Of a DNA stretch of 64,000 nt, positions 11,874 to 53,706 are shown piece by piece. The DNA is from an uncultured Chloroflexia bacterium (GTDB taxonomy: Bacteria; Chloroflexota; Limnocylindria; Limnocylindrales; CSP1-4). Where the stretch lies: assembly GCA_963755995.1 (NCBI GenBank), contig CAVWLQ010000003.1:388734-452733 (forward strand). The letters run 5' to 3'. The position numbers were made by a program, and so were the translations under genes. The notes under the pieces were generated by a model. It saw nothing but the letters and a program-made list of their open reading frames with translations, was not told the DNA's origin and made no database searches. How positions within the stretch are numbered: position 1 is the first letter of the stretch; each line of letters opens with the position of its first letter.

Positions 11874-11879
11874 TAGACT
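11874..11879 (+). promoter_or_regulatory. putative -10 hexamer (TAGACT), leaderless start
   Basis: TANNNT 7 nt upstream of ATG 11887. Confidence 0.4.
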
Positions 11880-11886
11880 CGGGGGC

Positions 11887-26606: not shown

Positions 26607-26612
26607 CGTTCG

Positions 26613-26618
26613 AGTCTA
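26613..26618 (-). promoter_or_regulatory. putative -10 hexamer (TAGACT on minus strand), leaderless start of SRAP gene
   Basis: The minus strand reads GCTAGACTCGAACGATG, so TANNNT sits 6 nt upstream of the ATG at 26606. Confidence 0.4.
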
Positions 26619-36231: not shown

Positions 36232-37779
36232 TCAGCGGGCGCCCGCGCGGCGGCGCTGACCGGCCGGTGCCTGGCGGGTCACCCGGAACAGGTGACCGCC
36301 GTACGCGGGCAGGTCGACGTACAGGCCGCGGCTGAGGACGTCGTCGCCCGGCCGGTCGTACACGACGTCGTCGAGCTGGTCCTCGAGCCGGACGGTCTTG
36401 CCGGCGAACTCGGGGAGTGCCAGCGGGATGTACGCCTGGGCCGGCTCGGCGCTCATGTTGGCGACGGCGAGCCGGAGCTGGCGATGCTGGCCGACCCACA
36501 GGCGGGCGAGGATGCCTTCATGCGTGCTGTTGCCCGGCCACGCGGAGATCGGCTCGAGCCGGACAGCCTGGCCGAGCCGGAACGCCTCGTCGTCGGTGGC
36601 CCGCAGGAGGCGGCAGTAGTACTCGTGCAGGGCGGGGTCGGTCGCCTCCTCGGGCTCGCGCCGGAACTGGACGGGCGCCTGCTCGCGGGCGCCGTGGATC
36701 TGGCCATCCCGCACCAGGAGCATGCCCGGCACGACCGCCTCGACGAGGGCCGCAGCGCGCTCCTGCGCCGGGGTCATCAGGGCCGCGATGCGCGGGCTGT
36801 TGCGATCCTCGAGGAGCCGGACGGACCTGCGCTGATAGCCGTCGTCCGCCCGGAGGTGCCCGGCGACCCCGGCCGGATCACCGCTCAGCATCCGGTCCAG
36901 CAGCGTCGAGTCGTAGGTGAAGTCGAAGCCCAGCTGCTGGAGCCGCCACTCGAGGCCCCAGTACGCCTCGCCGATGAGCAGGAAGCGCGGGTAGACGTCG
37001 CGGACGGCGCTGCTGGCATGCCACCAGAACTCGCCGAACGGGGAGGCCTCCTCCGCGGCGACCGGTGCCACGGACCGACCGCCCCAGGTCGACCGGAAGA
37101 CGTCGTCGAGCACGAGCATCGCCATCGAGCACACGACGCCGTCGCAGCGGGTGGCGACCTCGCGCAGGGTCTGGGTCATCGCCCGGGGGACGTCCGGGTG
37201 GCGATAGTCGAGCTGGGCCGTATCCAGCCACGGCCCGAAGTTCGGGTCGCGACCGTGGGCGATCCAGTGGCGCCCTTCCGAGCGCACCTCGAACCATTCG
37301 TCGGGCAGCTCCGATCGGTCGGCGGCGTCCGCGTGGACGAACCAGTCCGGATGCCGGCGGACCCACGGATGCTCCGGCGCGGTGTGGTTCGGAACGAAAT
37401 CGAGGATCAGCGCAAGACCGGCCTCGGCCAGGCGGGCGCGCAGCTTGGCCAGCCCGTCCTCGCCACCGAGGTTCTCGGCCGGCTCGTAGGCGCTGATGGC
37501 ATAGGGCGAACCGACGATGTCGTCGTCCGAGCCGTGGGGCAGGAGCTCCGCGCGGCGGTGTCGCAAGGAAGGCTGGGACCGCCACAGGCGCCGGCTGCCG
37601 GATCCGATCGTCCACGCCGCCGTGAGCCAGACCATGTCGAAGCCGAGCTCGGCGATCGGGTCGATGTCGCGCGCGCGTACGTCGCCAAAGCCGACCCGCC
37701 GGCCGTCACGCGCCGACAATCGCGCCAGCCAGGCCCTCGCATCGATCTCGATGAGCCGTGGGTGACGCGTCGACGTCAT
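36232..37779 (-). CDS. GH13 (alpha-amylase family)-like protein with non-canonical regions II and IV
   Basis: Region I LILDFVPNH and region III LLIGEAYW are present. The candidate region II reads DGVVCSMAM and region IV reads LLEDRNSPR. The start is taken at MTSTRHPRL (ATG 37779). Confidence 0.7.
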   Translation of the reverse strand: MTSTRHPRLIEIDARAWLARLSARDGRRVGFGDVRARDIDPIAELGFDMVWLTAAWTIGSGSRRLWRSQPSLRHRRAELLPHGSDDDIVGSPYAISAYEPAENLGGEDGLAKLRARLAEAGLALILDFVPNHTAPEHPWVRRHPDWFVHADAADRSELPDEWFEVRSEGRHWIAHGRDPNFGPWLDTAQLDYRHPDVPRAMTQTLREVATRCDGVVCSMAMLVLDDVFRSTWGGRSVAPVAAEEASPFGEFWWHASSAVRDVYPRFLLIGEAYWGLEWRLQQLGFDFTYDSTLLDRMLSGDPAGVAGHLRADDGYQRRSVRLLEDRNSPRIAALMTPAQERAAALVEAVVPGMLLVRDGQIHGAREQAPVQFRREPEEATDPALHEYYCRLLRATDDEAFRLGQAVRLEPISAWPGNSTHEGILARLWVGQHRQLRLAVANMSAEPAQAYIPLALPEFAGKTVRLEDQLDDVVYDRPGDDVLSRGLYVDLPAYGGHLFRVTRQAPAGQRRRAGAR

Positions 37780-37888
37780 CCGAAGAGGAGCCCTCACCCC
37801 GCGCCTCCCCCGCGTCGGAGCACATGCCGCGTGCCAGCGGTACGCGGCTCGACAGGGAACAGGATACCCGGACGGCGGCTTGCCGCCA

Positions 37889-38395
37889 CTACGCCTCCGG
37901 GCTTGACCCCGCCGACTGCGGCTCGGTGAAGAGAGCCCAGGCAAAGACGATCCCGAGGCCAACGAGCAGGGTCATCACAGCGCCCTCGACCTGGAGCGGC
38001 ATGAGGCCGGTCGCGGTCTTGACGATGTCCGGGTCGATCGCGACGAGCGTGATGATGAGGTAGAGCGGCAGGGCCAACCATTCATACCGTCCGAGCGCGG
38101 CGATGACGCCGGTCGGCTCCTTGACGCCGCGCGACCCGGTCACCACCGCGAGCATGCCGACGATCCCGGCCGTGGCGAACGTCAGCCGCCAGATCAGCGG
38201 CGCGTCGGCCGTCAGAAGGGCACCCAGCGACATCAGGCCGGGCAGGATGAAGTGGAGGGACACGACGAAGGCCAGCCGGCGCCGGCCCGGGTCCTGGGTC
38301 ATCTCGTTGTGACGGAACTGGACGACCACCCACCAGAACCCGAGCAACGTGAACGACACCGCCGATGTCGTCGCGTAGAACGTGCCGGTGTCCAT
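37889..38395 (-). CDS. five-TM membrane protein, unknown function (last gene of the Hsp70-dynamin operon?)
   Basis: MDTGTFYATTSAVSFTLLGFWWVVVQF... SD GAGGGGAGG upstream. Located 56 nt downstream of the dynamin gene on the same strand. Confidence 0.5.
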   Translation of the reverse strand: MDTGTFYATTSAVSFTLLGFWWVVVQFRHNEMTQDPGRRRLAFVVSLHFILPGLMSLGALLTADAPLIWRLTFATAGIVGMLAVVTGSRGVKEPTGVIAALGRYEWLALPLYLIITLVAIDPDIVKTATGLMPLQVEGAVMTLLVGLGIVFAWALFTEPQSAGSSPEA

Positions 38396-38451
38396 ACGAC
38401 CTCCCCTCGTCGTGCGCAGTGTGCCAGACCGGACACGGGCGCCGACCGCCG

Positions 38452-39936
38452 TCAGACGGTGGCGGCGTAGATGCCCTCGTATGCGCGGCTCACGATCTCG
38501 GCCGCCTCGATCGTGCGGCGGTCGCTCAACGGACTGGCGGCACGCGATCGCCACCGCTCGATGGCGTCCAGCGCCGTCCGGCGGACCTCGTCGGCGCCGG
38601 CGTCAGGCATCCCGACGCGCTCCGCGCCCGGCGCCGAGGCGCACAGGCGGTCCACCTCCGCGCGCTCGGCCGGGCTGAGCTCGACGACGCCCGTGAGCAC
38701 GAGGTGCAGGAGCCGCAGAAGCGCCAGGTCCTGCGACGACGCCTCGAGCCGATCGACCGACACGACGACGTCCGAGGCGCCCGCGATCCCGCGCCGGTCG
38801 AGCTCCTGTCCGATCACCCGCAGGGCCGCCAGCGCCGATCGTGCCTTGAGGACCTGCGCGCGCCGGCCGTAGCGCTCGTTCAGCATGCGCTGGAGCTGGC
38901 GGATCCCGGATCGCTCGAGGAGCGCGGCCGAGAGCTCCGTGGACGTCCCGGCCGTGCCGTCCGCGAGGAGCTGCACGGCCAGCCGCAGGCCGAACATGCC
39001 CAGCCGCGCCAGGAGCTCCTCACGGATCTCCTCGCCGAGCGGGTTCCCGTCCGGATCGCGGAACCGGTCCGCCGACAGCAGCAGGTCGTCGCGACGGGCC
39101 TCGGGCAGCACCGCCAGCGTCCGCAACCAGCGGAAATGCTCCTCGCGGAGCGTGGCGCCGGTCTCCGCGATCAGCCCGGCCACCGGCACGACCCCGGAGG
39201 CGAGCTCACGAACCCGGCCGTCGGCGCCGTAGCGCGCCGCGACCGCACGGGCGGAGTCGAGCGCGTCGAGCCGAGCCGCTCCGATCTCGTCCGCGCGCGA
39301 CAGCACGACGATCGCGTTGATCGGGGAGGCGTGCGCCACGGAGCGATCGACGAACGCCTCGAGGAACTGCACGTCCGACCGATGGAGGTGGCGCATCAGG
39401 TACAGGACGGCATCCGCGTCGCCGGGCCCCTCGCCGTCGTCGTCGAGCAGCGCCTCCTCCGTCCGCTCCGACGTCCCCTCGGTGGCCGAGGCGAGACCCG
39501 GGGTGTCGATGAGCGTGAGGTCGACCAGCTTCGCCGACGGCCAGCCCACCTCGAGCCGGTCGACAGCGGCGATGTCGAGGTCGCCCAGGTCGATCTCGAG
39601 GGCCCCGTCCCGGCGGCGGAAGGTGAGGTCGCGCTGCCCGCTCGGGCGGAGCTCGGCCACCACCCGGTAACCCAGGGCGTTGCGGTACCAGGTCACGATC
39701 CGGGTGCACTCACCGGCGTCGGTCGCAGCCAGGCGCTCGCCGACCAGCGCGTTGAGCAGGGTCGACTTGCCGGCCTTGACCCGGCCGGCGATCGCGACGC
39801 GGAGGGGTTCGTCGAGCCGCCGCTGGGCGACCCGGACCGAGTCCTCCTGGTCGGTCCCGCGGGCGACCTCCAGCGCCTCGGCTGCGATGCGCCGGACGTC
39901 CGTGGCCAGATCGCCCGGGCCGGAGGTCACGTCCAC
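38452..39936 (-). CDS. bacterial dynamin-like GTPase (about 494 aa, IniC-like size)
   Basis: G1 GRVKAGKSTLLNAL, G3 LIDTPGL, G4-like LSRADE, then a long helical stalk. Starts 8 nt after the Hsp70 gene. Confidence 0.75.
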   Translation of the reverse strand: MDVTSGPGDLATDVRRIAAEALEVARGTDQEDSVRVAQRRLDEPLRVAIAGRVKAGKSTLLNALVGERLAATDAGECTRIVTWYRNALGYRVVAELRPSGQRDLTFRRRDGALEIDLGDLDIAAVDRLEVGWPSAKLVDLTLIDTPGLASATEGTSERTEEALLDDDGEGPGDADAVLYLMRHLHRSDVQFLEAFVDRSVAHASPINAIVVLSRADEIGAARLDALDSARAVAARYGADGRVRELASGVVPVAGLIAETGATLREEHFRWLRTLAVLPEARRDDLLLSADRFRDPDGNPLGEEIREELLARLGMFGLRLAVQLLADGTAGTSTELSAALLERSGIRQLQRMLNERYGRRAQVLKARSALAALRVIGQELDRRGIAGASDVVVSVDRLEASSQDLALLRLLHLVLTGVVELSPAERAEVDRLCASAPGAERVGMPDAGADEVRRTALDAIERWRSRAASPLSDRRTIEAAEIVSRAYEGIYAATV

Positions 39937-39943
39937 GTTGCGG

Positions 39944-41899
39944 TTACGGCAGGTCCACGCAGTTGCCGGTGTCCTGGTTCACCGAGTGGTTGGCGTTGGC
40001 GACGAGGATGCACATCTGGGTCGCGCCAGCCGGCTTGTCACTGACCTTGTAGCCCTTGAACGGGTTCGGTCCGGCGTAGACGAACCAGGGGCCTGCGCCG
40101 GGGATCCCGGCATCCACCGGCTTGACCGTGTCGAAGAAGAAGTGGACGTGCCGGCCGGGCAGCGCCGGCTTGTAGCCGAACGCCTGCCACTGGACGACGT
40201 ACGTGCTCCCACTCAGCGTGATCCCGTTGATCCGGGCCTGGCGACCGGCCGGTGTCGGGCTGGGCGTCGGGGCCGGGGTGGCCGTCGGTTCGACGGTCGG
40301 TGCGACGCTCGGCGCGACCGACGGGGCCACGGACGGAGCGACGCTCGGCGCGACTGACGGCGCGGTCGAGACCACCGCCACCGACGCGGCCGGGCTCTGC
40401 GATGCCCCGCCACCCGAGAGCATCCCGGACGCCCCGACGGCCACGACGGCGACGAGGATGACGGCCAGCACGGCGGCGATCGCGATCATCGCCCGGTTGT
40501 TCGACCCGGACCCGCCCGGCGATGCGCCCGCACCGCCCGGCGGCGGGGGAGTGGTCCCGGACGAGCCCCCGGCCGCACCGGCGGGCGTCGTCGTCGCCGG
40601 ACCGCCGGTGGGGGGGACGCCACCCGCTGCGGACGCTGCGCCCGCTGCGAGCGCGGCACCGGCGATCGGGGGCCCGCCCGCGGCACCGCCGCCCGCCGCG
40701 ACGGCGGCTCCGGCGGCAGGTTCGGTGGCACCGGGCTCCGTGCCGGAGGCGACCCCGGCCGCCGCGGCAAGACCGGTCGCAGCGGCGATCGCACCGGCAC
40801 CGGCCGCGGCGGCGGCCGCCTCATCGCCGGCCGCGCCACGACGGGCTTCGGCCACGACCGCCGCCCCGAGGGCCATGGAATGCTTGGGATGGGCGTCGAC
40901 GGCGATCGGCCGGCCGGTCGCCTCGCGGACCATCTCCGCGACGAGCGGGATCCGCGAGCTGCCGCCGACCAGGAGGATGCGGTCCACGCCGTCGAACTCG
41001 AGGCCCGCGCTCTTGACCGCCCGGCCGAGCGCGCCGATCGTCTCGGTGATCCGCGGGCGGATCATCTCCTCGAATTCCTCGCGGGTCAGCCGCATCTCGG
41101 TCTGCAGGCCGGGCAGGACGACCGAGATCGTCGTGTCCGTGTCCGACGACAGGGCCTCCTTGGCCCGCCGGCATTCCTCTCGCAGCCGGGCGATGGCGGC
41201 CAGAGTCGCGGGGTCGTCGGGGTTCACGACGGCGCCGGACGCGCGGACCATGGCCATGACCTTGGTGAAAAGCGCCTCGTCGAAGTCGATGCCGCCGAGC
41301 CGCTCCATCCCCTCCGGGCGGCCGAGCTGCTCGAACCCGGTCTCGGTCTTGCGGAGCATCGTCGCGTCGAAGGTGCCGCCGCCGAAGTCGTAGACCGCGA
41401 TGACCGCGCCGGCCGGGACCCGCTCCTGCTGGGCGTAGAAGACGGCGGCTGCCTCGGGCTCGGTCAGCAAGGTCACGTTGGCGAGGTCGGCCTGTCGGAT
41501 GGCCTGCTCGAGCAGGTCGATCTTGTACGCCCCGTAGCTCGCCGGATGGGTCACGACGATCGCGTCCGGGGCGGCCCCGGACTGGGTCGTCACCCGGGCG
41601 ACGATGGCGCGCAGGAGGTGGGCGAGCAGCGCCTCCGCGCCGTAGGGCGTGCCGCCGAGGATGATCGGGGTCGGGTCGCCGAGACGCCGCTTGAACTCGC
41701 GCGCGGTCCGCGTCGGCTCGGCCAGAGAGCGCCGTTCGGCCGCGTCGCCGGTCAGGACCTCGCCGTCGGCCCGGAGGACCACGATGGACGGGATCGTCGC
41801 CGCGCGCTCGCCCAGCTGGAAGATCTCGACCCGGTCGTCGTGCGCCGTCGCCGCGGCCGAGTAGGTCGTCCCCAGATCGATCCCGAGCGAGTACGCCAT
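39944..41899 (-). CDS. Hsp70/actin-fold ATPase fused to an Ala/Gly-rich linker, one TM and a small extracytoplasmic Cys-containing domain
   Basis: NBD motifs GIDLGTTYS, VYDFGGGTFD and LVGGSSRIP. No canonical substrate-binding domain follows. Instead there are about 110 aa of A/G/P-rich sequence, a TM (AMIAIAAVLAVILVAVVAVGA), (SVAP)n, and then ...INGITLSGSTYVVQWQAFGY...MCILVANANHSVNQDTGNCVDLP. SD GAGGGGAGA upstream of ATG 41899. Confidence 0.85.
   Translation of the reverse strand: MAYSLGIDLGTTYSAAATAHDDRVEIFQLGERAATIPSIVVLRADGEVLTGDAAERRSLAEPTRTAREFKRRLGDPTPIILGGTPYGAEALLAHLLRAIVARVTTQSGAAPDAIVVTHPASYGAYKIDLLEQAIRQADLANVTLLTEPEAAAVFYAQQERVPAGAVIAVYDFGGGTFDATMLRKTETGFEQLGRPEGMERLGGIDFDEALFTKVMAMVRASGAVVNPDDPATLAAIARLREECRRAKEALSSDTDTTISVVLPGLQTEMRLTREEFEEMIRPRITETIGALGRAVKSAGLEFDGVDRILLVGGSSRIPLVAEMVREATGRPIAVDAHPKHSMALGAAVVAEARRGAAGDEAAAAAAGAGAIAAATGLAAAAGVASGTEPGATEPAAGAAVAAGGGAAGGPPIAGAALAAGAASAAGGVPPTGGPATTTPAGAAGGSSGTTPPPPGGAGASPGGSGSNNRAMIAIAAVLAVILVAVVAVGASGMLSGGGASQSPAASVAVVSTAPSVAPSVAPSVAPSVAPSVAPTVEPTATPAPTPSPTPAGRQARINGITLSGSTYVVQWQAFGYKPALPGRHVHFFFDTVKPVDAGIPGAGPWFVYAGPNPFKGYKVSDKPAGATQMCILVANANHSVNQDTGNCVDLP
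40286..40369 (-). repeat. 12-bp in-frame tandem repeat x7 encoding (S/T)(V/T)(A/E)P
   Basis: Hand-phased on the minus strand: STAP, SVAP x5, TVEP. Confidence 0.7.
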
Positions 41900-41969
41900 C
41901 GATTCTCCCCTCGATCGCCGGCCGGCTGGCGACGAGTCTAGCGTGCCACCCGGCGCGATACCCGGAGGG

Positions 41970-41975
41970 TACACT
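41970..41975 (+). promoter_or_regulatory. putative -10 hexamer (TACACT), leaderless start of divergent dynamin gene
   Basis: TANNNT 7 nt upstream of ATG 41983, inside the 83-nt divergent intergenic region shared with the Hsp70 gene. Confidence 0.35.
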
Positions 41976-41982
41976 CGGCCGG

Positions 41983-43837
41983 ATGACGAACGGGGCCGTG
42001 CTGCCGCGAGCCGACGCGACCGCTCCGGCCGGCCCGTCGCCCGACCCGACGGCGGTCGCCGACATCGTCACCGCCGCGATCGAGCTGGCCCGCAGCCGCG
42101 GGCGCGAGGATCTCGTGAGGCGCCTGTCGGCGGTGGCCGAACGGGTCGCCCGGACCGACACGGTGGTCTGCGTCGTGGGCGAGTTCAAGAAGGGCAAGAG
42201 CGCGCTCATCAACGCGCTGCTCGGTGCGCCGGTGTGCCCGGTCGACGACGACCTCGCGACGATGGCCGTGACCGTCGTGCGCTACGCCCCGGAGCCCGGT
42301 GCGATCGTCCGGCGCCGTGAGGGCGGGGAGCTCATCGTCGAGGCCATCCCGGCCGACGAGGCGAGCCGCTGGGTCGCCGAGCGCGACGGGGACGACCGGC
42401 GCTACGGCGTGGAGGTCGTCGAGGTCGGCCTGCCCGACCCGTTCCTCGAGCGGGGGATCGCGCTCGTCGACACGCCCGGCGTCGGGGGGCTGAACGCCGC
42501 CCACGCGGCCGCGACCCTGGCCTTCCTGCCTTCGGCCGATGCGCTCGTGTTCGTGACCGATGCCTCGGCCGAGCTGTCCGCTCCCGAGCTGGCCTTCCTC
42601 GCCAGTGCCATGCGCGCGGGCCCGCCGATCCTGATCGCGGTGACCAAGGTGGACATCTACCCCGAATGGCGGCGCATCGTCGCGATCGACGAGGGCCGCC
42701 TGACCGCCATGGGCCTGGCCGACCCGCCGTTCCCGCTCAGCTCGGTCCTGCGGACGCACGCGCTGGCCACGGGCGACCCGAGCTTCGAGGCGGAGAGCGG
42801 CTATCCGCGCTTCGCCGCGGCGCTGGCCGAGGACGTCGTGGGCCGGGCGCGCGCGGCGTCCCTCGCGAGCGCCCTGGCCCAGGTCCTGCCCGCCCTCGAC
42901 CAGCTGCGCGAGTCGCCGGCGGCCGAGCAGGCGGTGCTCGACGATCCGGCCGCCGCCGCGCGCCTGACGACCGACCTGCGCGAGGTCCGCGGCCGCCTCG
43001 CGACCCTGGCCGCGGCCGATGCCTCCTGGTCGGTCCGCCTGGAGGACGAGTTCGCGTCCCTGCGCACCCGGACCGGGTTCGCGTTCCAGGCCCGGATGCG
43101 CGCGCTCCAGCGCGAGCTCCAGGACGAGATCGAGCGGATCGACCCGGCCCGGGCATGGCCCGAGGTCAGCCAGCGGATCCAGGCCGACACGGCGGCCGCG
43201 GTCCGGGCCGCGTTCCTCGAGGCGACCGACGGCGCGGCCGCGATCCAGGGGACCATCGCCGGGCTCCTCGCGGACGAGACCCCCGGGCTCGACGGGGTGG
43301 GCGCGCCGGTCTCGTTCGACGTGGCCACGTTGTGGCAGGGCGGCCCGACCTTCGATGGACGCGCCAGGTCCGGCCTGGCGGCCAGCCTCGGCCTGTTCGG
43401 CGGGGCCAGCGTCGGGGTCGAGATGCTGGGCATGCTCGGCACCCTGCTCGGGGCGGCGGTGGTCGGCCCGGCGGCGCTTGGGCGTGGCGGCGGTCTTCGG
43501 CGGCAAGGAGGTCCTGAGCGAGCGGCGTCGCCAGCTGGCCGACCGGCGCCAGCAGGCGCGGGCCTTCCTCGGGACGTTCCTCGAGGAGGTCCGGTTCGAG
43601 GCCGACGGCCGGCTCGCCTCGCTCCTCGACGACGTCCAGCGCCAGATGCGCGCCCGCTTCGCCGACCGGATCCACGAGCTCCGGCGGACCTTCGCCGAGA
43701 CCGCCGAGGCCCTCGAACGGGCCGCTGCCCAGGCAGACGAGGCGGCGGGGGCCAGGCGGCCGGAGCTGGCCGCGGAGCTGGCCGAGATCGATGCCCTGCG
43801 AGCCCGCGCGGTGGACCCGCCGATGCTGGCCGGCTGA
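41983..43837 (+). pseudogene. bacterial dynamin-like GTPase (about 618 aa, IniA-like size) with hydrophobic paddle; one apparent +1 frameshift near 43480
   Basis: G1 GEFKKGKSALINAL, G3 VDTPGVGG, G4 TKVD. Paddle: GLAASLGLFGGASVGVEMLGMLGTLLGAAVVGPAALG. The C-terminal 118 aa (VAAVFGGKEVLSERRRQLADRRQQ...) continue in the frame of ORF 43019..43837. Confidence 0.75.
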
Positions 43838-44159
43838 GGCCAATCGGATGGCGGGGGAAGGACGATTCGGGGTGGAATCGTGGTCATGCCGTCTGCTACA
43901 GTCACGGCCTTGGCATCGTCTCAGGCGAGGGTGAGTCCAGGGACGGTCACCGGGAGAGTGGGGACCCGGCACGCGGCACGGATCGACGGGGGGAAGACCG
44001 ACGACGATCCGGACCAGAGGGTCGGGACAACGGGGCCGATCACGTTTCCACCCACCCTTCGACGGCGACCGCCCGGGACCACCCATCGGCGAGGCCGCAC
44101 CGTGTCGCGCCGCGGGCGAATGAGGGATCCGTCCCCCGTATGGACGTCAAACGGCTGGA

Positions 44160-44993
44160 GTGGTGGACTTGAAGCGAATCCTGATCATCCTCTCTGAGTT
44201 CGGCTACTGGGGCGAGGAGCTCGTCGGCCCCCTCGAGACCTTCGACGAAGCCGGCTACCAGATCGATTTCGCGACGCCCAAGGGCGGGCGACCGACTCCC
44301 TTGCCGCCGAGCATGGACCCGCAGTACATCGACCCGCCGCTCGGCAAGTCCGTGACGTCACAGGAGGTCGCGGACAAGGTCAAGGCGCTCGACGCCTCGC
44401 ATCGCTACGACAAGCCGATCGACATCTCCAGCTGGATCCCGGAGCGTCCGTACTACAGCTCGCCGACGCTGCTGCGCGACATGGAGGCGTACTACGCACG
44501 CCTTGACGAGGTCCAGAAGGAGATCGAGGAGAAGTACGACGCGATCCTGCTCGTCGGCGGCAGCGGCCCGATCGTCGACATCGCCAACAACGACCGGATC
44601 CACGCCCTGATCCTGCTCTTCCAGAAGCTCAACAAGCCGATCGGCGCCGAGTGCTACGGCGTGGCCGCGCTGGCCTTCGCCCGCGACCTCGACAACCGCG
44701 AGAGCATCATCACCGGCAAGCGCGTCACCGGCCACTGCAAGGAGTACGACTACAAGGACGGGACCGGCTTCATCGGGGTCATGTTCAACATGGGCCCGCC
44801 GCCGTATCCGCTCGAGTACATCCTCCGCGACGCGACCGCGCCCGAAGGCGAGTACATCGGGAACGTCGGCCATGCGACCTCGGTCATCGTCGACTACCCG
44901 TTCATCACCGGTCGCTCCACACCGGACTCGTACCTCACGGGCGAGAAGATGGTCGAGGTGCTCGAAGAGGGCCTGACCCGGTATGGCTGGTAG
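44160..44993 (+). CDS. DJ-1/PfpI-superfamily (class I glutamine amidotransferase-like, Hsp31-like) protein
   Basis: ILIILSEFGYWGEEL...AILLVGGSGP...KPIGAECYGVAAL (nucleophile-elbow Cys). GTG start; alternative starts at 44163 or 44169. Confidence 0.7.
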   Translation: MVDLKRILIILSEFGYWGEELVGPLETFDEAGYQIDFATPKGGRPTPLPPSMDPQYIDPPLGKSVTSQEVADKVKALDASHRYDKPIDISSWIPERPYYSSPTLLRDMEAYYARLDEVQKEIEEKYDAILLVGGSGPIVDIANNDRIHALILLFQKLNKPIGAECYGVAALAFARDLDNRESIITGKRVTGHCKEYDYKDGTGFIGVMFNMGPPPYPLEYILRDATAPEGEYIGNVGHATSVIVDYPFITGRSTPDSYLTGEKMVEVLEEGLTRYGW

Positions 44994-46743
44994 CTCCGTC
45001 AGTCCGGCGCTGGACGACGGGGTGGCCACGACGAGGACGGGGCGCTACGCGATCCTCGAGCAACTGCTGGCCGACGAGGTCGGCTACATCTTCGGCAACC
45101 CGGGGACCGTCGAGCAGGGCTTTTTGGACGCCCTCGGGAGCTATCCGGACCTGCCCTACATCCTGACCCTCCAGGAGACGATCGCCGTCGCCATCGGCGA
45201 CGGCTACGCCCGGGCGCGGCATCATCCGGCCGTCGTCCAGCTCCACAGCGGGGTCGGCCTCGGCAACGGCATCGGGATGCTCTACCAGGCCAAGCGCGGC
45301 GGGACGCCGCTCGTGGTCATCGCCGGCGAATCGGGCATCAAGTACGACGCGATGGACGCCCAGATGGCGGCCGACCTCGTGTCGATGGCGCGGCCGGTGA
45401 CCAAGTGGGCGACCCGCGTCGTCGACCCGGGCTCCGTCCTGCGGGTCCTCCGGCGAGCGATCAAGATCGCCGGCACGGCGCCGACCGGACCGGTCTTCGT
45501 GTGCCTGCCGGCGGACGTCCTCGACGCGCCCAACACCGAGGCCGTCATCAAGACCGCGATGCCGGCCACCCGGGTCGTCCCGGAGCCCGGCCTCGTCGCG
45601 GAGGCGGCGACGCTCCTGGCCGGCGCGGAGCATCCGCTGATCATCATGGGCGACGGCATCTCGATGTCCGGGGCCCAGGCCGAGCTCACCCGCGTCGCCG
45701 AGCTCCTCGGCGCCGAGGTCTGGGGGGCCAACTCGTCCGAGGTCAACATCGACGAGACGCACCCGCTGTTCCGGGGCAACCTCGGCCACATGTTCGGCCA
45801 CCACAGCGGGCCGCTCGTCGGCCCGGCCGACGCGGTGCTGATCGTCGGCACGTACGTCTTCCCGGAGGTCTTCCCGGCCCTGGCGGACGTCTTCTCGCCC
45901 GGGACCCGGGTCGTCCACGTCGATCTCGACGCCTACGAGATCGCCAAGAACTTCCCGGTCGACCTGGGCATCGTCGCCGACCCGAAGCTGACCCTGGCGG
46001 CGCTCGCGGTCGTCCTGGATCAGCAGCTGGCGCCGGCCGCCCGCGAGGCCGCCGGCCGGCGGATCGACGGCCGGCGGGCCGCTCGCGAACAGGCGGCCGC
46101 GGCGATGCGCGACGCGGACCTCGAGGCACGCCGGTCGGTCCCGCTCCACGCATCGGAGTTCATGGAGGCCCTGGCAGCCCGGCTGCCGGCCGACGCGATC
46201 GTCTTCGACGAGGCCCTGACGTTCTCGCCGGAGGTCACCCAGTACCTGCCGCCGCGCGTGCCCGGCTCGTTCTTCCAGACCCGGGGCGGGTCGCTCGGGG
46301 TCGGCATCCCGGGCGCGATCGGCGCCAAGCTGGCCCACCCCGACCGGACGGTCGTCGGGTTCACCGGCGACGGCGGCAGCATGTACACGATCCAGGCGCT
46401 GTGGACCGCGGCCCACCACCGGATCGGGGCCAAGTTCGTGATCCTCGACAACGGGGCGTACCAGCTCCTCCGGCTGAACATCCAGCAGTACTGGAAGGAC
46501 CTCGGTCTCCCGGAGAACCCGTTCCCCGCGTCGTTCGACCTGGGCGATCCGGACATCCGGTTCGACGTGCTGGCCGAGGCGATGGGCGTCGACGCCCTGC
46601 GCGTCGCGACGCGCGAGGAGATCGGCCCGGCGCTCGACGCCGCGCTCGCCGACGACCGCCCATTCCTGATCGATCTCGTCGTCAACAACGACGTCCGCAA
46701 CGACGTCGCCCAGGGCAAGCATCTCAAGGCCGGCCAGTCGTGA
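44983..46743 (+). CDS. thiamine-diphosphate enzyme, benzoylformate-decarboxylase/acetolactate-synthase-like
   Basis: YIFGNPGTVEQGFLDAL..., ...GVGLGNGIGMLYQAKRGGTPLVVIAGE, and the ThDP motif GDGGSMYTIQALWTAA...FVILDNGAY. The start could alternatively be GTG 45022. Confidence 0.85.
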   Translation: MAGSSVSPALDDGVATTRTGRYAILEQLLADEVGYIFGNPGTVEQGFLDALGSYPDLPYILTLQETIAVAIGDGYARARHHPAVVQLHSGVGLGNGIGMLYQAKRGGTPLVVIAGESGIKYDAMDAQMAADLVSMARPVTKWATRVVDPGSVLRVLRRAIKIAGTAPTGPVFVCLPADVLDAPNTEAVIKTAMPATRVVPEPGLVAEAATLLAGAEHPLIIMGDGISMSGAQAELTRVAELLGAEVWGANSSEVNIDETHPLFRGNLGHMFGHHSGPLVGPADAVLIVGTYVFPEVFPALADVFSPGTRVVHVDLDAYEIAKNFPVDLGIVADPKLTLAALAVVLDQQLAPAAREAAGRRIDGRRAAREQAAAAMRDADLEARRSVPLHASEFMEALAARLPADAIVFDEALTFSPEVTQYLPPRVPGSFFQTRGGSLGVGIPGAIGAKLAHPDRTVVGFTGDGGSMYTIQALWTAAHHRIGAKFVILDNGAYQLLRLNIQQYWKDLGLPENPFPASFDLGDPDIRFDVLAEAMGVDALRVATREEIGPALDAALADDRPFLIDLVVNNDVRNDVAQGKHLKAGQS

Positions 46744-46765
46744 GCCGGAGCAGGGGAGGATCGCG

Positions 46766-47200
46766 ATGACGGATCTCGACGAGTCGGAGGTCAAGGCGTT
46801 GGTCGACGCCTGGTACAAGGCGCTCGACGTGCACGCGCCGGTCGACCAGGTCGTGGCGATGGTCGCGGCGGACGGCCTCGAGTGCTACTGGCCGGAGGGT
46901 CCGACCTTCGGAGTGGACGAGTTCAAGGGCTGGTACGACCGGGTCACCCACACCTTCTTCGACGAAGTCCACACGATGAAGGAGCTGGAGATCACGCCCC
47001 GAGGCGACCAGGCTGACGTGAAGCTCGTCGTCAACTGGCAGGCCAAGGTCTGGAACCCGCCGGACGCGACCAGCAAGTGGCTCGGCATGGACGCCCGCCA
47101 GACGTGGGTCGTGGCGCGCGCCGCGGACGGCGGCCGGCCCGTCATCCAGAAGTACGTCGTCGACGGCATGGACCTGATGCCCGGCTCGTCGACGCTCTGA
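46766..47200 (+). CDS. NTF2-fold protein (ketosteroid-isomerase/SnoaL_2-like)
   Basis: 144 aa with an alpha+beta cone pattern (VKALVDAWYKALD...VVNWQAKVW...TWVVARAADGGRPVIQKYVVD). SD GGGGAGGA upstream. Confidence 0.55.
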   Translation: MTDLDESEVKALVDAWYKALDVHAPVDQVVAMVAADGLECYWPEGPTFGVDEFKGWYDRVTHTFFDEVHTMKELEITPRGDQADVKLVVNWQAKVWNPPDATSKWLGMDARQTWVVARAADGGRPVIQKYVVDGMDLMPGSSTL

Positions 47201-47202
47201 GC

Positions 47203-47241
47203 GGATCCGCGGCCGCACCCGCCACCACGGCGGCCGCATCC
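47203..47241 (+). other. intergenic hairpin built on two NotI-type GCGGCCGC palindromes
   Basis: GGATCCGCGGCCGC-(13 nt)-GGCGGCCGCATCC: an 8-9 bp GC stem plus a 4-bp extension after a 2-nt bulge, with no U-tract. It lies in the only long (131-nt) gap inside the operon. Confidence 0.3.
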
Positions 47242-47331
47242 GCCGCCTACGAAAGGGGGCTCGCCTGACTCGAGGACGCGCTATCACTCGGACCGCATCG
47301 GATCAGCTCAACGACGAACGGAGGGAATCCC

Positions 47332-47832
47332 GTGGCAACTGACGCAGCCGTCCACCCCGCGATGGCGGTCGTGGGCAAGATGTACGAGTGTTTCGGCAAG
47401 GGCGACATGGCGACCCTGAAGACCGACGTCTTCGCCCCGGACATCACCTGGGCCCTGCCGGGCCACCACCCGCTGTCGGGCGTCAAGAACGGCCCGGATG
47501 AGGTCATCGCGTTCTTCGCCGCCTTGATGCAGACCGGCATCAAGGTGGACAACGTCACCTTCGGCACGATGGGCGACGACCAGGTCGTCGAGAAGCACAC
47601 CGGGCACGGCATCCTGACCAACGGCGAAGAGATCATCTTCCCGACCTGCAGCCACTACACGATCAAGGACGGCAAGATCGCCAAGGTCCAGGTCTACACG
47701 GCGGACCAGCACGGCGTGGATCGCTATTTCTGGGCGATGTACGACCTCAAGCCGATCCCCGGCCGGCTCGACAACCACGACACGTCGAACCTGGACGATC
47801 CCAACGTCCCGCTCCGCACCGACAAGGCGTAG
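47332..47832 (+). CDS. NTF2-fold protein (SnoaL_2-like)
   Basis: VVGKMYECFGKGDMATLKTDVFAPDITWALPGHHPLSG...HYTIKDGKIAKVQVY. SD ACGGAGGGA upstream of the GTG. Confidence 0.6.
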   Translation: MATDAAVHPAMAVVGKMYECFGKGDMATLKTDVFAPDITWALPGHHPLSGVKNGPDEVIAFFAALMQTGIKVDNVTFGTMGDDQVVEKHTGHGILTNGEEIIFPTCSHYTIKDGKIAKVQVYTADQHGVDRYFWAMYDLKPIPGRLDNHDTSNLDDPNVPLRTDKA

Positions 47833-47835
47833 GCG

Positions 47836-48264
47836 ATGGCTGACATCACCGCCGATCGGGTCAAGAGCGCCTACAAGGCCCTCGCCACCGGCGATCGCAA
47901 CCTCATCGCGGAGTTCTGGGCGGAGGAGATGGTCTGGCAGGTCCCGGGCCACAACCACCTGTCCGGCTGGTACCACGGCCTCGACGAGTTCCTCGGGTTC
48001 ATGGGCCAGGTCGGCGCCCTGTCCGCCGGCAGCTTCAACATGGAGACGATCAGCGTCATCGTCGAAGCGGACTGGTCGGCGGACATCACCCGCAACCAGG
48101 GCAAGCGGGCGGACAGCGAGAAGAAGCTCGACATCGAGGTCGTCCACGTGCTCCGCTGGACCGACGGCAAGGTCGTCGCCGGCAAGGGCGCGATCTTCGG
48201 CGACGGGACGACCGAGTACGACCAGTTCTGGTCGCGTGCGCCGGTCGTCGGCGACACCCAGTAG
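47836..48264 (+). CDS. NTF2-fold protein (SnoaL_2-like), paralogue of the preceding gene
   Basis: VKSAYKALATGDRNLIAEFWAEEMVWQVPGHNHLSG...LRWTDGKVVAGKG. It has the same W-x-(L/V)PGH-x-x-LSG signature as 47332. Gap of 3 nt. Confidence 0.6.
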   Translation: MADITADRVKSAYKALATGDRNLIAEFWAEEMVWQVPGHNHLSGWYHGLDEFLGFMGQVGALSAGSFNMETISVIVEADWSADITRNQGKRADSEKKLDIEVVHVLRWTDGKVVAGKGAIFGDGTTEYDQFWSRAPVVGDTQ

Positions 48265-48302
48265 CTCGCCGGTCAGCGGCACAGCCCGACAGGAGCGCAA
48301 CG

Positions 48303-48665
48303 ATGCCGATCATCACGATCCAGTTCATCAAGGACGTCGTGGCCAACGACGAGCAGAAGCAGGAGCTGCTCGTGAAGATGACCGACACCTTCATCTCGGT
48401 GGTGGGTGAGGTCGCCCGGCCGTTCGTCTACTGCATCATCCAGGAGACCCCGCAGATGGAATGGTCCATCGGCGGCAAGGCCATGCCGGATCTCGCATTC
48501 CTGATCGGGCCGGAGTACACCGCCCAGAAGGACAAGTCGAACGAGATCATGAGCGCGTTCGTCGAGTCGTCCAAGGCAGACCACGACGCGGCCGGCGGCG
48601 ACCCGAACAAGGACCACCTCGCCGAGAAGATGTGGGCGGCGCCGCCGGCCCCGAAGACCGAATAG
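48303..48665 (+). CDS. 4-oxalocrotonate-tautomerase-family protein with about 55-aa C-terminal extension
   Basis: MPIITIQFIKD... (Pro1 after Met removal, beta-alpha-beta unit). SD AGGAGC upstream. Confidence 0.55.
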   Translation: MPIITIQFIKDVVANDEQKQELLVKMTDTFISVVGEVARPFVYCIIQETPQMEWSIGGKAMPDLAFLIGPEYTAQKDKSNEIMSAFVESSKADHDAAGGDPNKDHLAEKMWAAPPAPKTE

Positions 48666-48681
48666 GGGCCGGGAGGACCAG

Positions 48682-49158
48682 ATGCCAGACGCCGAGCACA
48701 CGTACACCGCCCAGGAGGAGGCCGCGATGGCCGTCATCCGCCGGTGGTGCGATGAGGGTTGGACGAAGGGCCATGTCGAGGTGGCGGACGAGATCATCCA
48801 CCCGAACTTCAAGGTCCACGGCGCGGGCGGCCAGGTCATCGAGCCCGGCATCGAGGGCCTGAAGCAGCTCGTCACCGCCTGGCGGACGGGGTTCCCGGAC
48901 GCCGTCCAGCGGGTCGACAAGATCATGGCCCTGGGCGACACCGTCGTCGTCCGGCTGACCTGGGAGGGCACCCACCTGGGCGAGTTCATGGGCACGCCGC
49001 CGACCGGCAAGAAGGTCAGCGTCGAGACCATCGGGATCGACCGCGTCGTCGACGGCAAGGTCGTCGAAGGCTGGGGCCAGCTCGACATGCTGGGTCTGCT
49101 GACGACGATCGGCGCCATGGTGCCGGCCGCTCCGGCGGCCGAGCCCGCCAAGAGTTGA
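48682..49158 (+). CDS. SnoaL-like ester cyclase family protein (single NTF2 domain)
   Basis: VIRRWCDEGWTKGHVEVADEII...EGTHLGEFMGTPPTGKKVSVETIGIDRVVDGKVVEGWGQLDMLGLLTTIG. Confidence 0.7.
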   Translation: MPDAEHTYTAQEEAAMAVIRRWCDEGWTKGHVEVADEIIHPNFKVHGAGGQVIEPGIEGLKQLVTAWRTGFPDAVQRVDKIMALGDTVVVRLTWEGTHLGEFMGTPPTGKKVSVETIGIDRVVDGKVVEGWGQLDMLGLLTTIGAMVPAAPAAEPAKS

Positions 49159-49222
49159 TCCCGGGCTAGGTACGGCTCCGGCCGGGTGCCCCGAGGGTCG
49201 CGCATTGGAAGGAAGGACGCTC

Positions 49223-50173
49223 ATGGCCTCGGAGATCTCTTCGCCCGGGGAGAAGAACAAGGCGACCTACCGTCGTTTCGTCGAGGAGGTCATCAACAAG
49301 GGAAACGTCGAGGTCATCCCGGAGTTGTACCAGGCTGACTACGTCGATCACAGCCGTCCGCCGGGGGCGCCCGAAGGTCTCGACGGGGTCCGCATGATCC
49401 CCAAGATGTTCCGTGGTGCCTTCCCCGACCTGCATTTCACGATCGAGCTGATGGTGGCCGAGGGCGACCTTGTCGCCACGTACGTCACCGGCCGAGGCAC
49501 CAATGACGGCCCATTCATGGGTCACCCGGCGACCGGCAGGAAGGCCCAATGGGCGTCGATGGGCTTCTTCCGCGTCGCGGACGGGAAGATCGCGGAGCAC
49601 TGGGGGTCCCCGGACCTCCTGACGCTGCTCACGCAGCTCGGCGCGATCCCGTCGCCCGGTGGCGCGGCGCCTCCGCCCCAGGCGGCGACACCGCCGCGGA
49701 AGGCGGAGGGCCGGATCGACCCCGAGGAGGGCAAGCGGATCCTCCGACAGTACGTGGAGGATGAGTTCAACCGGCACGACCTGAGCGGACTCGACGACAT
49801 CCTCGCCGACGGCTACGTCTATCGGGCGATGGGCATGGAGATCAAGGGCCTCGATGGCTACAAGGCCACCGTCGAGCCGCTGTTCGTGGCCTTCCCGGAC
49901 GTGAAGAACACGACCGAGGAGATCATCGCCGAGGACGACCTCGTCGCGACGCGATGGAGCGCCAAGGGCACGCATCTCGGCCCGTTCATGGGCATTCCCG
50001 CCACCGGCAAGGCGGTCCAGCTCACGGGGATGACGATCGAGCGAATCGCGGGCGGCAAGCGGCTCGAAGGCTGGGGCGTCCCCGACATGCTCGGTCTGAT
50101 GGGCCAGCTGGGTGCCGGACCTGGGGCAGCGGGTGGAGCCCCGCCCGGAGGCTCGCCGGACGCGCCGCATTGA
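49223..50173 (+). CDS. tandem double ester-cyclase (two NTF2 domains) protein
   Basis: Domain 1: ...YRRFVEEVINKGNVEV...GPFMGHPATGRKAQWASMGFFRVADGKIAEHWGSPDLLTLLTQLG. Domain 2: ...GPFMGIPATGKAVQLTGMTIERIAGGKRLEGWGVPDMLGLMGQLG. The ATG at 49223 has SD GGAAGGAAGGA; the track start at 49205 is less likely. Confidence 0.7.
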   Translation: MASEISSPGEKNKATYRRFVEEVINKGNVEVIPELYQADYVDHSRPPGAPEGLDGVRMIPKMFRGAFPDLHFTIELMVAEGDLVATYVTGRGTNDGPFMGHPATGRKAQWASMGFFRVADGKIAEHWGSPDLLTLLTQLGAIPSPGGAAPPPQAATPPRKAEGRIDPEEGKRILRQYVEDEFNRHDLSGLDDILADGYVYRAMGMEIKGLDGYKATVEPLFVAFPDVKNTTEEIIAEDDLVATRWSAKGTHLGPFMGIPATGKAVQLTGMTIERIAGGKRLEGWGVPDMLGLMGQLGAGPGAAGGAPPGGSPDAPH

Positions 50174-50219
50174 CGAACGCACCGCATCCGACCATGGCTG
50201 AGACCCAGAAGGAGTCCTG

Positions 50220-51107
50220 ATGTCGCTCGCAGAGGAACAGCAGAACAAGGAGATCGTCACGGCGTTCGTCAAGGCGACGAACAAGCTCGAGCTCGACAAG
50301 CTCGACGACATGGTCGTCGAGGACTACGTCGAGCACCAGCCGATCCCCGGTCAGCCGCCCGGCCGCGAAGGCCTGAAGTGGGCGTACAAGGTGTTCAACG
50401 AGCCGTTCCCCGACCTCGAGTTCGATTTCGCCGATGTCATCGCGGAGGGCGACCTCATCGTGGGGCGGGGGATCGGCGAAGCGGTCAACAAGGGCAGCTT
50501 CATGGGCATCCCGCCGACCAACAAGCCGGTCAAGTGGAGCGGCACGCGCCTGTTCCGGATGAAGGACGGCCGCCTCGTCGAGGGCTGGATCAACATCGAC
50601 ATGCTCGGGATGATGCAGCAGCTCGGCGTGGTGCCCGCGTCACCGCCCGGTCCACCGGCGCCGGCGACCCGGCACATCACCGGGGCGCCCTCGACGCGCG
50701 AGGCGAACCACGCGCTCATGGAGCGGTTCATCGACGAGGTCTGGAACAAGGGCAACCTCGCGGTCGCCGACGAGCTGTTCCATCCCGAGGCATCCAGCCC
50801 CAGCGCGCCGACCCTCCCGCTGGGCGCCGAGGGCGTCAAGTTCATCGTGAACATGATGCGCAACGCGTTCTCCGACTACTGGATGGAGATCACCCACATC
50901 GTGGCTGAGGACGACCGGGTCGCCGCCCGGTTCCGCCAGGGTGGCACGCACGACGGCGACCTGATGGGCATCGCTCCGACCGGCAAGAAGGTCGAGTGGA
51001 CCGAGATCGGCATCCTCCGGATCGCCGACGGCAAGGTCGTGGAGAGCTGGTACGACGTCGACATGCTCGGGCTGATGGGTCAGCTCGGCGTCGGTGGCCA
51101 GAGCTAG
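50220..51107 (+). CDS. tandem double ester-cyclase (two NTF2 domains) protein
   Basis: Domain 1: ...GSFMGIPPTNKPVKWSGTRLFRMKDGRLVEGWINIDMLGMMQQLG. Domain 2: ...GDLMGIAPTGKKVEWTEIGILRIADGKVVESWYDVDMLGLMGQLG. SD GAAGGAG upstream. Confidence 0.7.
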   Translation: MSLAEEQQNKEIVTAFVKATNKLELDKLDDMVVEDYVEHQPIPGQPPGREGLKWAYKVFNEPFPDLEFDFADVIAEGDLIVGRGIGEAVNKGSFMGIPPTNKPVKWSGTRLFRMKDGRLVEGWINIDMLGMMQQLGVVPASPPGPPAPATRHITGAPSTREANHALMERFIDEVWNKGNLAVADELFHPEASSPSAPTLPLGAEGVKFIVNMMRNAFSDYWMEITHIVAEDDRVAARFRQGGTHDGDLMGIAPTGKKVEWTEIGILRIADGKVVESWYDVDMLGLMGQLGVGGQS

Positions 51108-51120
51108 CGGCGGGCACGCG

Positions 51121-51501: not shown

Positions 51502-51510
51502 GGGACGCAG

Positions 51511-53672: not shown

Positions 53673-53706
53673 CCGGTCCCGCAACCAGAGAGAGGAGACG
53701 CGTTCG

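Follow-up and report, generated by a model that had tools for sequence, protein, structure and literature searches.

We examined a 64,000-nucleotide stretch of contig CAVWLQ010000003.1 from an uncultured Chloroflexia bacterium (the window hereafter; G+C content of 72%), in which positions 37889 to 43837 hold a divergent locus of four genes. Two of these genes encode dynamin-like proteins (DLPs) of the IniA and IniC types, and a third, lying between them, encodes an Hsp70-like protein that is predicted to be anchored in the membrane. We found this trio in every adequately flanked locus examined, in Chloroflexota, in Actinomycetota and on one cyanobacterial plasmid, in at least five gene orders. 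The locus is composed as follows (aa, amino acids):

37889..38395, minus strand: polytopic membrane protein of 168 aa, recognized by hydropathy only and without a family match
38452..39936, minus strand: IniC-type dynamin-like GTPase of 494 aa (Pfam Dynamin_N)
39944..41899, minus strand: Hsp70-like bitopic membrane protein of 651 aa (Pfam HSP70)
41900..41982, no strand: divergent intergenic and promoter region of 83 nt between the Hsp70-like and IniA-type genes
41983..43837, plus strand: IniA-type dynamin-like GTPase (Pfam Dynamin_N), with its frame broken at 43478/9 and 617 aa long after repair

The open reading frame (ORF) map and translations placed the three minus-strand ORFs where an initial annotation of this DNA had put them and confirmed its 83-nt divergent spacer at 41900-41982. 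The spacing between the Hsp70-like gene and the GTPase gene behind it is 7 nt, not 8 nt as given there, and 56 nt separate the IniC-type gene from the 168-aa gene. That annotation also placed the locus within Actinomycetota, which is wrong for the window. The closest relatives of all three proteins come from Chloroflexota metagenome-assembled genomes (MAGs) labeled Candidatus Limnocylindrales/Limnocylindria or "uncultured Chloroflexia," and the syntenic relatives are Limnocylindrales MAGs, with GCA_038248915.1 sharing synteny with the window over ~20 kb. The module itself does reach into Actinomycetota.

Alignment of 19 sequences allowed us to read five parts in the Hsp70-like protein, all encoded on the minus strand:

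40835-41899, minus strand: Hsp70-type nucleotide-binding domain (NBD), aa 1-355 (Pfam HSP70 and motifs)
40499-40834, minus strand: disordered, variable Ala/Gly/Pro-rich linker, aa 356-467 (19-sequence alignment)
40424-40498, minus strand: single transmembrane (TM) helix, aa 468-492, the sole hydrophobic segment (Kyte-Doolittle value of 3.2)
40235-40423, minus strand: Pro/Ser/Thr/Ala linker with (APSV)5, aa 493-555 (19-sequence alignment)
39947-40234, minus strand: conserved extracytoplasmic beta-sandwich of ~95 aa, aa 556-651 (alignment and AlphaFold2 [AF2] model)

The Pfam HSP70 match is strong (E=6.5e-55) and covers only positions 105-378 of the 599 in the profile. Within the NBD we found the phosphate-1, phosphate-2 and adenosine motifs and the catalytic Lys (DLGTT, the K in EFKRRLG, TEPEAAA, DFGGGTFD and VGGSSRIP), and among solved structures the DnaK NBDs are closest (E=4e-41, 30-35% identity). 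The likeness to DnaK and HscA ends there. Neither Pfam, NCBIfam nor the alignment revealed a substrate-binding domain, a hydrophobic interdomain linker or a helical lid, whose place is taken by the disordered linker, the TM helix and the ectodomain, and the NCBIfam DnaK and HscA models scored 170-189 bits against cut-offs of 620-1019. None of the four proteins of the locus has an NCBIfam model of its own, the generic GTPase and DnaK matches falling below cut-off. In addition, no DnaJ or GrpE domain was present among the genes scanned between 27950 and 49158. Because the protein lacks an interdomain linker, a substrate-binding domain and a lid, and because the neighboring genes scanned lack DnaJ and GrpE domains, its sequence indicates that it is not a canonical chaperone and is instead a bitopic membrane protein carrying a cytoplasmic Hsp70-type ATPase domain on a long tether.

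The AF2 model of the C-terminal ectodomain is a six-strand beta-sandwich (predicted local distance difference test [pLDDT] score of 91.7), and its invariant residues are an H-x-H-F-F motif, a third His and two Cys; the HxH, the further His and the Cys pair suggest a site for a metal or for redox chemistry. A fold search of this model against the PDB gave nothing significant (best E=0.045, to FN3/Ig-like sandwiches with TM scores of 0.56 or less), and a profile search for homologues returned short fragments of the same family only, with no other architecture. The cytoplasmic Ala/Gly/Pro linker is hypervariable in length and sequence, as would be expected of a disordered tether. The extracytoplasmic linker contains a perfect (Ala-Pro-Ser-Val)x5 repeat at 40300-40360 (aa ~515-535). 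Since a Pro/Ser/Thr-rich character of this second linker is common to all homologues, it may form a glycosylated or cell-wall-spanning stalk. The very low E-values obtained for homologues of the Hsp70-like protein are inflated by its low-complexity linker, and we used NBD identity instead to compare them.

This architecture bears on one explanation of the locus, in which the Hsp70-like protein is a folding or assembly factor for the DLPs, or a co-regulated envelope-stress protein (for example, one handling membrane or secreted clients in the same stress response), that is co-expressed with the DLPs without forming a joint machine with them. The closest characterized relatives of the protein are indeed chaperone NBDs, the ini genes of Mycobacteriales adjoin dnaK-grpE-dnaJ, IniR-like regulators flank several of the loci described below, as would fit a shared regulon, and purified IniC has been reported to be unstable (PMC6715688). 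The missing substrate-binding domain and interdomain linker and the lack of DnaJ and GrpE domains in the genes scanned at 27950-49158 nevertheless argue against this explanation, and the tight operons of several lineages, with genes overlapping or spaced by 7 nt, suggest a stoichiometric partnership more than simple co-regulation. We therefore regard this explanation as unlikely, while giving it some weight.

The gene for the long GTPase at 41983-43837 is real, but the uninterrupted frame of ~618 aa with which it had been annotated is not. Its 1855 nt are not a multiple of 3, and a +1 frameshift had been read through. Frame 1 encodes a sound protein up to ...GPAAL and then Arg/Pro/Gly-rich nonsense to 44172, and we found the real C terminus in the next reading frame. 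The break was mapped against a contig of 95% nucleotide identity (L002) and a syntenic MAG (L003), and it falls inside the stretch encoding the predicted membrane paddle:

43478..43479, plus strand: single-base insertion, an extra T in a TT run (DNA alignment with L002 and L003, CTTGGG versus CT-GGG)
43372..43527, plus strand: hydrophobic, glycine-rich membrane paddle, aa 464-515 of the repaired IniA-type protein (alignment and hydropathy)

Owing to this +1 insertion relative to L002 and L003, the IniA ORF of the window is not intact. The repaired protein has 617 aa, the same length as an intact homologue with 98% identity. Comparison with L003 showed the break to be the sole frame split in 19 syntenic genes, indicating that the assembly is not generally indel-ridden, and the extra T reflects either a fault of the assembly or an inactivation that happened very recently. 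In several MAG loci (L029, L031, L035, L037 and L041-L045), homologues of all three genes are broken into different frames, which suggests that breaks of this kind are a common artifact in MAG data. If real, the frameshift would be disabling, given its position just ahead of the segment aligned to the IniA lipid-interacting loop.

Pfam Dynamin_N matched the IniA-type protein at E=1.6e-21 (77.5 bits against a cut-off of 27), and residues 27-590 of the repaired protein aligned with residues 6-572 of Mycobacterium smegmatis IniA (PDB 6J72, E=2e-71), unbroken through the repair site. It carries GTPase motifs G1 (GRVKAGKS, aa 66), G3 (DTPG, aa 163) and G4 (SRAD, aa 221). The hydrophobic paddle that the initial annotation had ascribed to the long GTPase is present in the repaired protein and corresponds in the alignment to the M. 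smegmatis IniA region whose end is the lipid-interacting loop (residues 480-492), a loop defined previously (PMC6715688). Of the basic pair R488/K489 in M. smegmatis IniA, R488 is replaced by Gly here and the Lys is retained. By alignment, the long GTPase once repaired is a full-length IniA homologue, including the trunk tip predicted to interact with the membrane.

The 494-aa GTPase also matched Pfam Dynamin_N (E=4.2e-11, 43.6 bits against the cut-off of 27) and carries the motifs GEFKKGKS, DTPG and TKVD. As had been noted for both GTPases, the G1, G3 and G4 motifs are present, and they are invariant in the family alignments. A hydropathy scan found no hydrophobic segment in the IniC-type protein of the kind present in the IniA-type protein. 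Sequence matches of the 494-aa protein to solved structures are weak; the match to M. smegmatis IniA reached 27.6 bits (E=1.3e-05) within the GTPase domain only. In contrast, its AF2 model, built from a 44-sequence alignment of representatives (pLDDT 90.6), had bacterial dynamin-like protein (BDLP), mitofusin/Fzo1, IniA, SynDLP and Cj-DLP as its top 35 Foldseek matches. Helical neck and trunk bundles follow and embrace the GTPase domain in both proteins, as judged from the 6J72 alignment for the IniA type and from the AF2 model for the IniC type. The IniC-type family comprises 753 representative clusters (50% identity) at E<=1e-30, and ten distant cluster representatives are named "dynamin family protein" or hypothetical. 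These names being uninformative, we set the IniC orthology through the iniB-iniA-iniC operon of Nocardia farcinica, in which IniB has its typical N terminus and Gly/Ala repeats and IniA shares 47% identity with its M. smegmatis counterpart. Over 470 aa, the 494-aa protein shares 43% identity (E=9e-84) with the product of the gene at the iniC position of this operon. This match, together with the dynamin fold, firmly establishes the 494-aa GTPase as an IniC-type DLP. Thus, the 6J72 alignment, the Nocardia operon match and the fold search bear out the view that both GTPases are dynamin-like, and they specify the pair as IniA-type plus IniC-type. By orthology, the window pair would be expected to remodel membranes in a manner dependent on GTP hydrolysis.

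Paired DLPs next to an actin-fold ATPase might also suggest a system that acts in cell division or septum stabilization, like Streptomyces DynA/DynB, with the Hsp70-like protein as an FtsA-like membrane anchor. Cytoskeletal assemblies are anchored by actin-fold ATPases such as FtsA and MreB, weak profile matches to both of these were obtained with the NBD, and paired DLPs stabilize Streptomyces FtsZ rings, as cited in PMC6104087. Those profile matches are far weaker than the Hsp70 matches, however, no division genes lie in the neighborhood, and the DLPs are orthologous to IniA and IniC, proteins that mycobacteria induce under stress and can grow without. A role in division is thus very unlikely.

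To describe the distribution of the trio, we used an IniA-anchored scan with two peptide patterns and one genome per species, which yielded 80 loci, 42 from Chloroflexota and 38 from Actinomycetota (mostly Acidimicrobiia). The Hsp70-like gene is divergent from IniA in all 42 Limnocylindria loci, and IniC follows the Hsp70-like gene in all 40 of those with enough flank; 38 Chloroflexota loci have the same ectodomain as the window. The Actinomycetota loci are arranged as in mycobacteria, with IniA and IniC co-directional and IniC directly after IniA wherever the downstream flank sufficed (34 of 34). All 15 Acidimicrobiia loci with full +/-8 kb flanks contain one to three Hsp70-NBD paralogues, which are 1.4-6.7 kb away and share 40-66% identity with the window NBD, as against ~30% for canonical DnaK.

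Loci reached by other routes gave the same picture. DLPs flank the Hsp70-like gene in all three Hsp70-anchored loci (L001, L090 and L091), and an HSP70 gene adjoins the DLPs in four of four loci anchored on distant IniC representatives with 38-42% identity (L092-L095), arranged as Hsp70(-) | IniB -> DLP -> DLP (twice), Hsp70 -> DLP -> DLP and DLP -> DLP -> Hsp70. Annotations from the Prokaryotic Genome Annotation Pipeline (PGAP) show dynamin -> GTPase -> Hsp70 -> Hsp70 on a Rhodococcus plasmid and dynamin -> GTPase -> Hsp70 on a Gordonia plasmid, each Hsp70 there consisting of an NBD, one TM helix and a different ectodomain. Nonomuraea has an IniC-like gene, then an IniA-like gene and then a gene for an Hsp70 NBD fused to a CD225-type membrane domain. 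On an Anabaena plasmid an Hsp70 family protein is encoded a few genes from a DLP pair, the second member of which is 32% identical to the window IniC-type protein. The ectodomain thus differs among lineages: the window has a beta-sandwich, one Acidimicrobiia-group paralogue (L054) an NHL propeller, Nonomuraea a CD225/IFITM-type membrane domain and Nocardia a Gly-rich tail, with still other domains in the Rhodococcus and Gordonia proteins. Clustering of conserved neighbors joined the DLP and Hsp70 families in one component, and we used it only to spot other neighbors.

The recurrent linkage of Hsp70-like genes with dynamin pairs, on which the initial annotation had staked its proposal, is therefore found in Limnocylindria, in Acidimicrobiia, on plasmids and in distant IniC loci. 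Because the linkage persists through rearrangement and across three phyla, it argues for functional coupling. That an Hsp70 paralogue and a DLP pair came to lie side by side by chance, without being functionally related, is effectively refuted by the conservation of the linkage in all examined loci with adequate flanks, from Chloroflexota and Actinomycetota to a cyanobacterial plasmid and through five or more gene orders.

Several of these loci have further neighbors. A gene for a MoxR-type AAA+ ATPase lies immediately downstream of IniA in 21 Limnocylindria loci (within L008-L045; e.g., L008, 10114-12433) and in 16 loci a ~485-aa gene comes next. The window has no such pair at this place. In Nonomuraea gerenzanensis (L086, 5188-18974), a gene for a caspase-domain protein follows the Hsp70 NBD-CD225/IFITM-type fusion, and the locus is flanked by two AAA_16-TPR-LuxR (IniR-like STAND) regulators. 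A C39 family peptidase gene is situated a few kilobases upstream of the DLP pair on both Anabaena pANA01 (L087, 5303-6124) and the Rhodococcus BH4 plasmid (L088, 637-1569).

We also examined whether the trio corresponds to a known defense system of the Leo/Eleos type, and we rejected this assignment. The PADLOC matches of the DLPs are local (LeoA at residues ~35-90, LeoBC over the N-terminal part of the GTPase domain only, ~100 of 601 profile positions, at 28-45 bits), and PADLOC gave no match for the Hsp70-like protein or the small TM protein. LeoABC/Eleos and Bacillus subtilis DynA resemble the window system in belonging to the dynamin superfamily, in occurring as pairs or a fused pair and in being proposed to act at the membrane. 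The window DLPs differ from LeoABC/Eleos in that similarity is local and at the level of the P-loop only and in that a defense-island context is lacking. We know of no Hsp70-like component in the LeoABC/Eleos or B. subtilis DynA systems.

By analogy with proposals made for B. subtilis DynA and Leo/Eleos, the trio could still be an anti-phage or conflict system, in which diversifying receptors would detect envelope attack and trigger membrane sealing by the DLPs or abortive infection. The copies on Rhodococcus, Gordonia and Anabaena plasmids, the strong ectodomain variation between lineages with up to three paralogues per locus in Acidimicrobiia, the caspase-domain protein and STAND-type ATPases at the Nonomuraea locus and the weak LeoA/LeoBC matches are all compatible with such a role. 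These PADLOC matches are limited to the GTPase P-loop region, however, and the Hsp70-like protein matches no defense model. Moreover, the module occurs once per locus in the 42 Limnocylindria loci, metabolic genes rather than a defense island surround it in the window and its nearest relatives, and the STAND-LuxR neighbors resemble the stress regulator IniR. We consider a defense function doubtful.

The initial annotation had assigned the Hsp70-like protein to the IniB position and had taken its Ala/Gly-rich linker as the IniB equivalent; neither proposal survived. In Nocardia farcinica (NZ_LN868939.1, L085, 4646-17355), the Hsp70-like gene is on the minus strand, divergently upstream of iniB (1042 aa) -> iniA -> iniC, and it has the same place in two metagenomic actinobacterial loci, L092 and L093. 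Since IniB and the Hsp70-like gene co-exist in these three loci, the Hsp70-like protein does not replace IniB. Against the linker as an IniB equivalent, the IniB family PF27122 appeared in none of 120 close homologues of the fusion protein (precomputed annotations), tblastn with Nocardia IniB found nothing in the window or in loci L001-L084, and the linker is hypervariable. PF27122 is recorded for genes in L092 and L093; Nocardia IniB scored nothing in our local Pfam copy, which apparently lacked this family.

The comparison also brought out differences within the Actinomycetota. In Nocardia, iniC is directly followed by a canonical dnaK-grpE-dnaJ operon, the dnaK of which is a different gene from the Hsp70-like one, and the Gly-rich extracytoplasmic tail of the Hsp70-like protein has an IniB-like composition. 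In the Acidimicrobiia loci (L046-L081; e.g., L046, 3247-4725), the slot upstream of IniA that IniB occupies in Mycobacteriales holds an acidic, low-complexity protein rich in Gly/Asp/Val/Ser, of 365-690 aa, with an N terminus of MGWFDD... and no detectable similarity to IniB.

Relative to mycobacterial iniBAC, then, the window system shares a long GTPase that is a full-length IniA homologue, including the region ending in the lipid-interacting loop, and a paired organization in which the short DLP matches the iniC-position gene of the Nocardia operon. It differs in having no IniB in the window, a Chloroflexota host and a frame-shifted IniA, and in its layout, with IniA divergent instead of upstream of IniC and IniC co-transcribed with the Hsp70-like gene. 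No IniR-like gene was present among the genes scanned around the window locus. In mycobacteria, IniA carries out GTP-dependent fission and uses its loop to bind acidic lipids (PMC6715688), the IniA-IniC complex is required for vesicle release, and M. smegmatis is without IniB (PMC10240201).

These findings lead us to favor a reading in which the locus is a Chloroflexota IniA/IniC module with a conserved third gene, whose Hsp70-like product would serve as an ATP-gated, envelope-facing anchor or regulator of IniA-IniC; we put its probability at about 50%. IniA, binding the membrane with its paddle, and the soluble IniC would form a heteromer through their GTPase domains, and this heteromer would deform, sever or vesiculate the cytoplasmic membrane, an activity shown for the mycobacterial proteins and expected here by orthology. 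Tethered to the inner leaflet by its ~110-residue linker, the NBD of the Hsp70-like protein would anchor or regulate the DLPs in an ATP-gated manner, recruiting or releasing them, and the lineage-variable ectodomain would report the state of the envelope. IniC would be the most plausible partner, because it has no element for binding the membrane and its translation is coupled to that of the Hsp70-like gene. A physical interaction, ATP dependence and a sensing role for the Hsp70-like protein are thus predictions of this model, and a three-component machine, as the initial annotation had envisaged, is suggested by the gene linkage.

A stronger and more tentative form of the proposal is that bitopic Hsp70-NBD proteins are a missing, widely conserved third subunit of IniA/IniC-type dynamin machines. 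They would be transmembrane receptors that sense envelope damage or attack with their variable ectodomains, and their ATPase domain, lacking the substrate clamp, would directly gate recruitment, assembly or disassembly of the dynamin heteromer at the affected site. We consider this possible, with the balance of probability against it.

Several observations weigh against assigning the Hsp70-like protein a regulatory or anchoring role. Its link to the DLPs is genetic, with direct contact only predicted. The scan patterns were specific to the IniA clade of the window, so that the large counts come from related lineages, and the linkage samples obtained independently of the scan are few. In Acidimicrobiia the Hsp70-like gene is near IniA->IniC, not adjacent to it. 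The Nocardia Hsp70-like protein has degenerate phosphate-binding motifs (GITVGAS and LGATGAT); it may be a pseudo-ATPase, and ATP hydrolysis would then not be universally kept. The ectodomain has neither a recognizable ligand site nor a recognizable fold family, and the window's own IniA gene is frame-shifted. Furthermore, a published comparison of ini loci gives a dnaK-like gene to M. smegmatis only and not to M. tuberculosis or M. marinum (PMC5760070). As mycobacterial IniA and IniC work without IniB and, in some species, apparently without an Hsp70-like protein, the latter would be at most accessory.

The divergent intergenic region contains two conserved boxes:

41933-41940, minus strand: conserved box TAGACTCG, before the Hsp70-like gene
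41970-41977, plus strand: conserved box TACACTCG, before the IniA gene

Both are versions of the 8-mer TA[G/C]ACTCG, are oriented alike relative to their own gene and are conserved between the corresponding genes of ~40 Limnocylindria loci, four of which have the two fused into a perfect 16-bp palindrome, CCGAGTGTACACTCGG. We rejected the boxes as the mark of a specific regulon, since the same 8-mer occurs at two unrelated sites in the window. Its four occurrences (the other two at 11874-11881, plus strand, and 26611-26618, minus strand) all lie in or at the edge of noncoding stretches on our reading of the ORF map, and they are probably -10-type promoter elements of the lineage. Because the IniA-side box ends 5 nt upstream of the ATG, it would give a leaderless mRNA. 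A GGAG ribosome-binding site precedes the ATG of the Hsp70-like gene. Neither a sigma-70 promoter (by a simple scan) nor an intrinsic terminator was found in 37600-44300.

The 168-aa protein, annotated initially as having five TM segments, shows four clear hydrophobic segments in a hydropathy scan, the fifth, N-terminal one being weaker. It has no Pfam, NCBIfam or PADLOC match. Homologues occur in 4 of the 42 Limnocylindria loci, and in L090 a 168-aa gene, also without a Pfam match, occupies the same position. We conclude that this protein is probably a lineage-specific neighbor and not part of the core module. On the other side of the locus, directly downstream of the IniA gene, 44160-53700 holds an unusual array that begins with a ThiJ/DJ-1-like gene, continues with a gene for a thiamine pyrophosphate-dependent (benzoylformate-decarboxylase-like) enzyme and ~8 SnoaL-like genes, some with a tandemly duplicated domain, and then reaches a GMC oxidoreductase gene and a second DJ-1/PfpI gene. 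The array is syntenic in GCA_038248915.1.

The initial annotation had considered the combination of an Hsp70-type ATPase with two dynamins to be undescribed. This is correct insofar as we found no paper that analyzes a connection between Hsp70 and IniA/IniC, but two passing remarks precede ours. Boot et al. (2017; PMC5760070) mention in one sentence, as an insertion, a dnaK-like gene beside iniR in M. smegmatis. Like the window gene, it is an Hsp70-family gene inside an ini locus, and its position fits the layout in Nocardia, L092 and L093; we liken it by position and by the published description, not by NBD-TM sequence. Jilly et al. (2018; PMC5827413) describe, among cyanobacterial BDLPs, a "chaperone group" that has a DnaK-domain gene downstream and shares with the window the linkage of a DLP to an Hsp70-family gene; the Anabaena plasmid shows such a linkage too. 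The cyanobacterial DLPs are more distant (24-32% identity), and the classification is descriptive only, silent on a substrate-binding domain and a membrane anchor.

In eukaryotes, the full chaperone Hsc70 is recruited by the J-protein auxilin and acts on the clathrin coat in dynamin-dependent endocytosis. The likeness to the window locus, an Hsp70-type ATPase and a dynamin engaged on one membrane-remodeling event, goes no further than analogy. The window ATPase differs in having neither a substrate-binding domain nor a J-protein and in being itself membrane-anchored.

The DLP pair of the window is thus of a known kind, and its conserved, membrane-anchored Hsp70 partner lacking the substrate clamp is essentially unstudied. 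For the question of what directs bacterial DLPs to their targets and turns them on, a linked partner of this type is a concrete candidate regulator or anchor. IniA and IniC are relevant to mycobacterial drug tolerance and vesicle release, and their Hsp70-like partner has escaped attention, probably because it seems to be missing from M. tuberculosis. An anchor or regulator of this type would be a case of an Hsp70 ATPase domain that operates, inside a transmembrane protein, with no substrate-binding domain. If the third-subunit proposal were true, the trio would be a receptor-coupled equivalent, in prokaryotes, of the cooperation between Hsc70 and dynamin, and the Hsp70 engine would here serve a purpose other than chaperoning.

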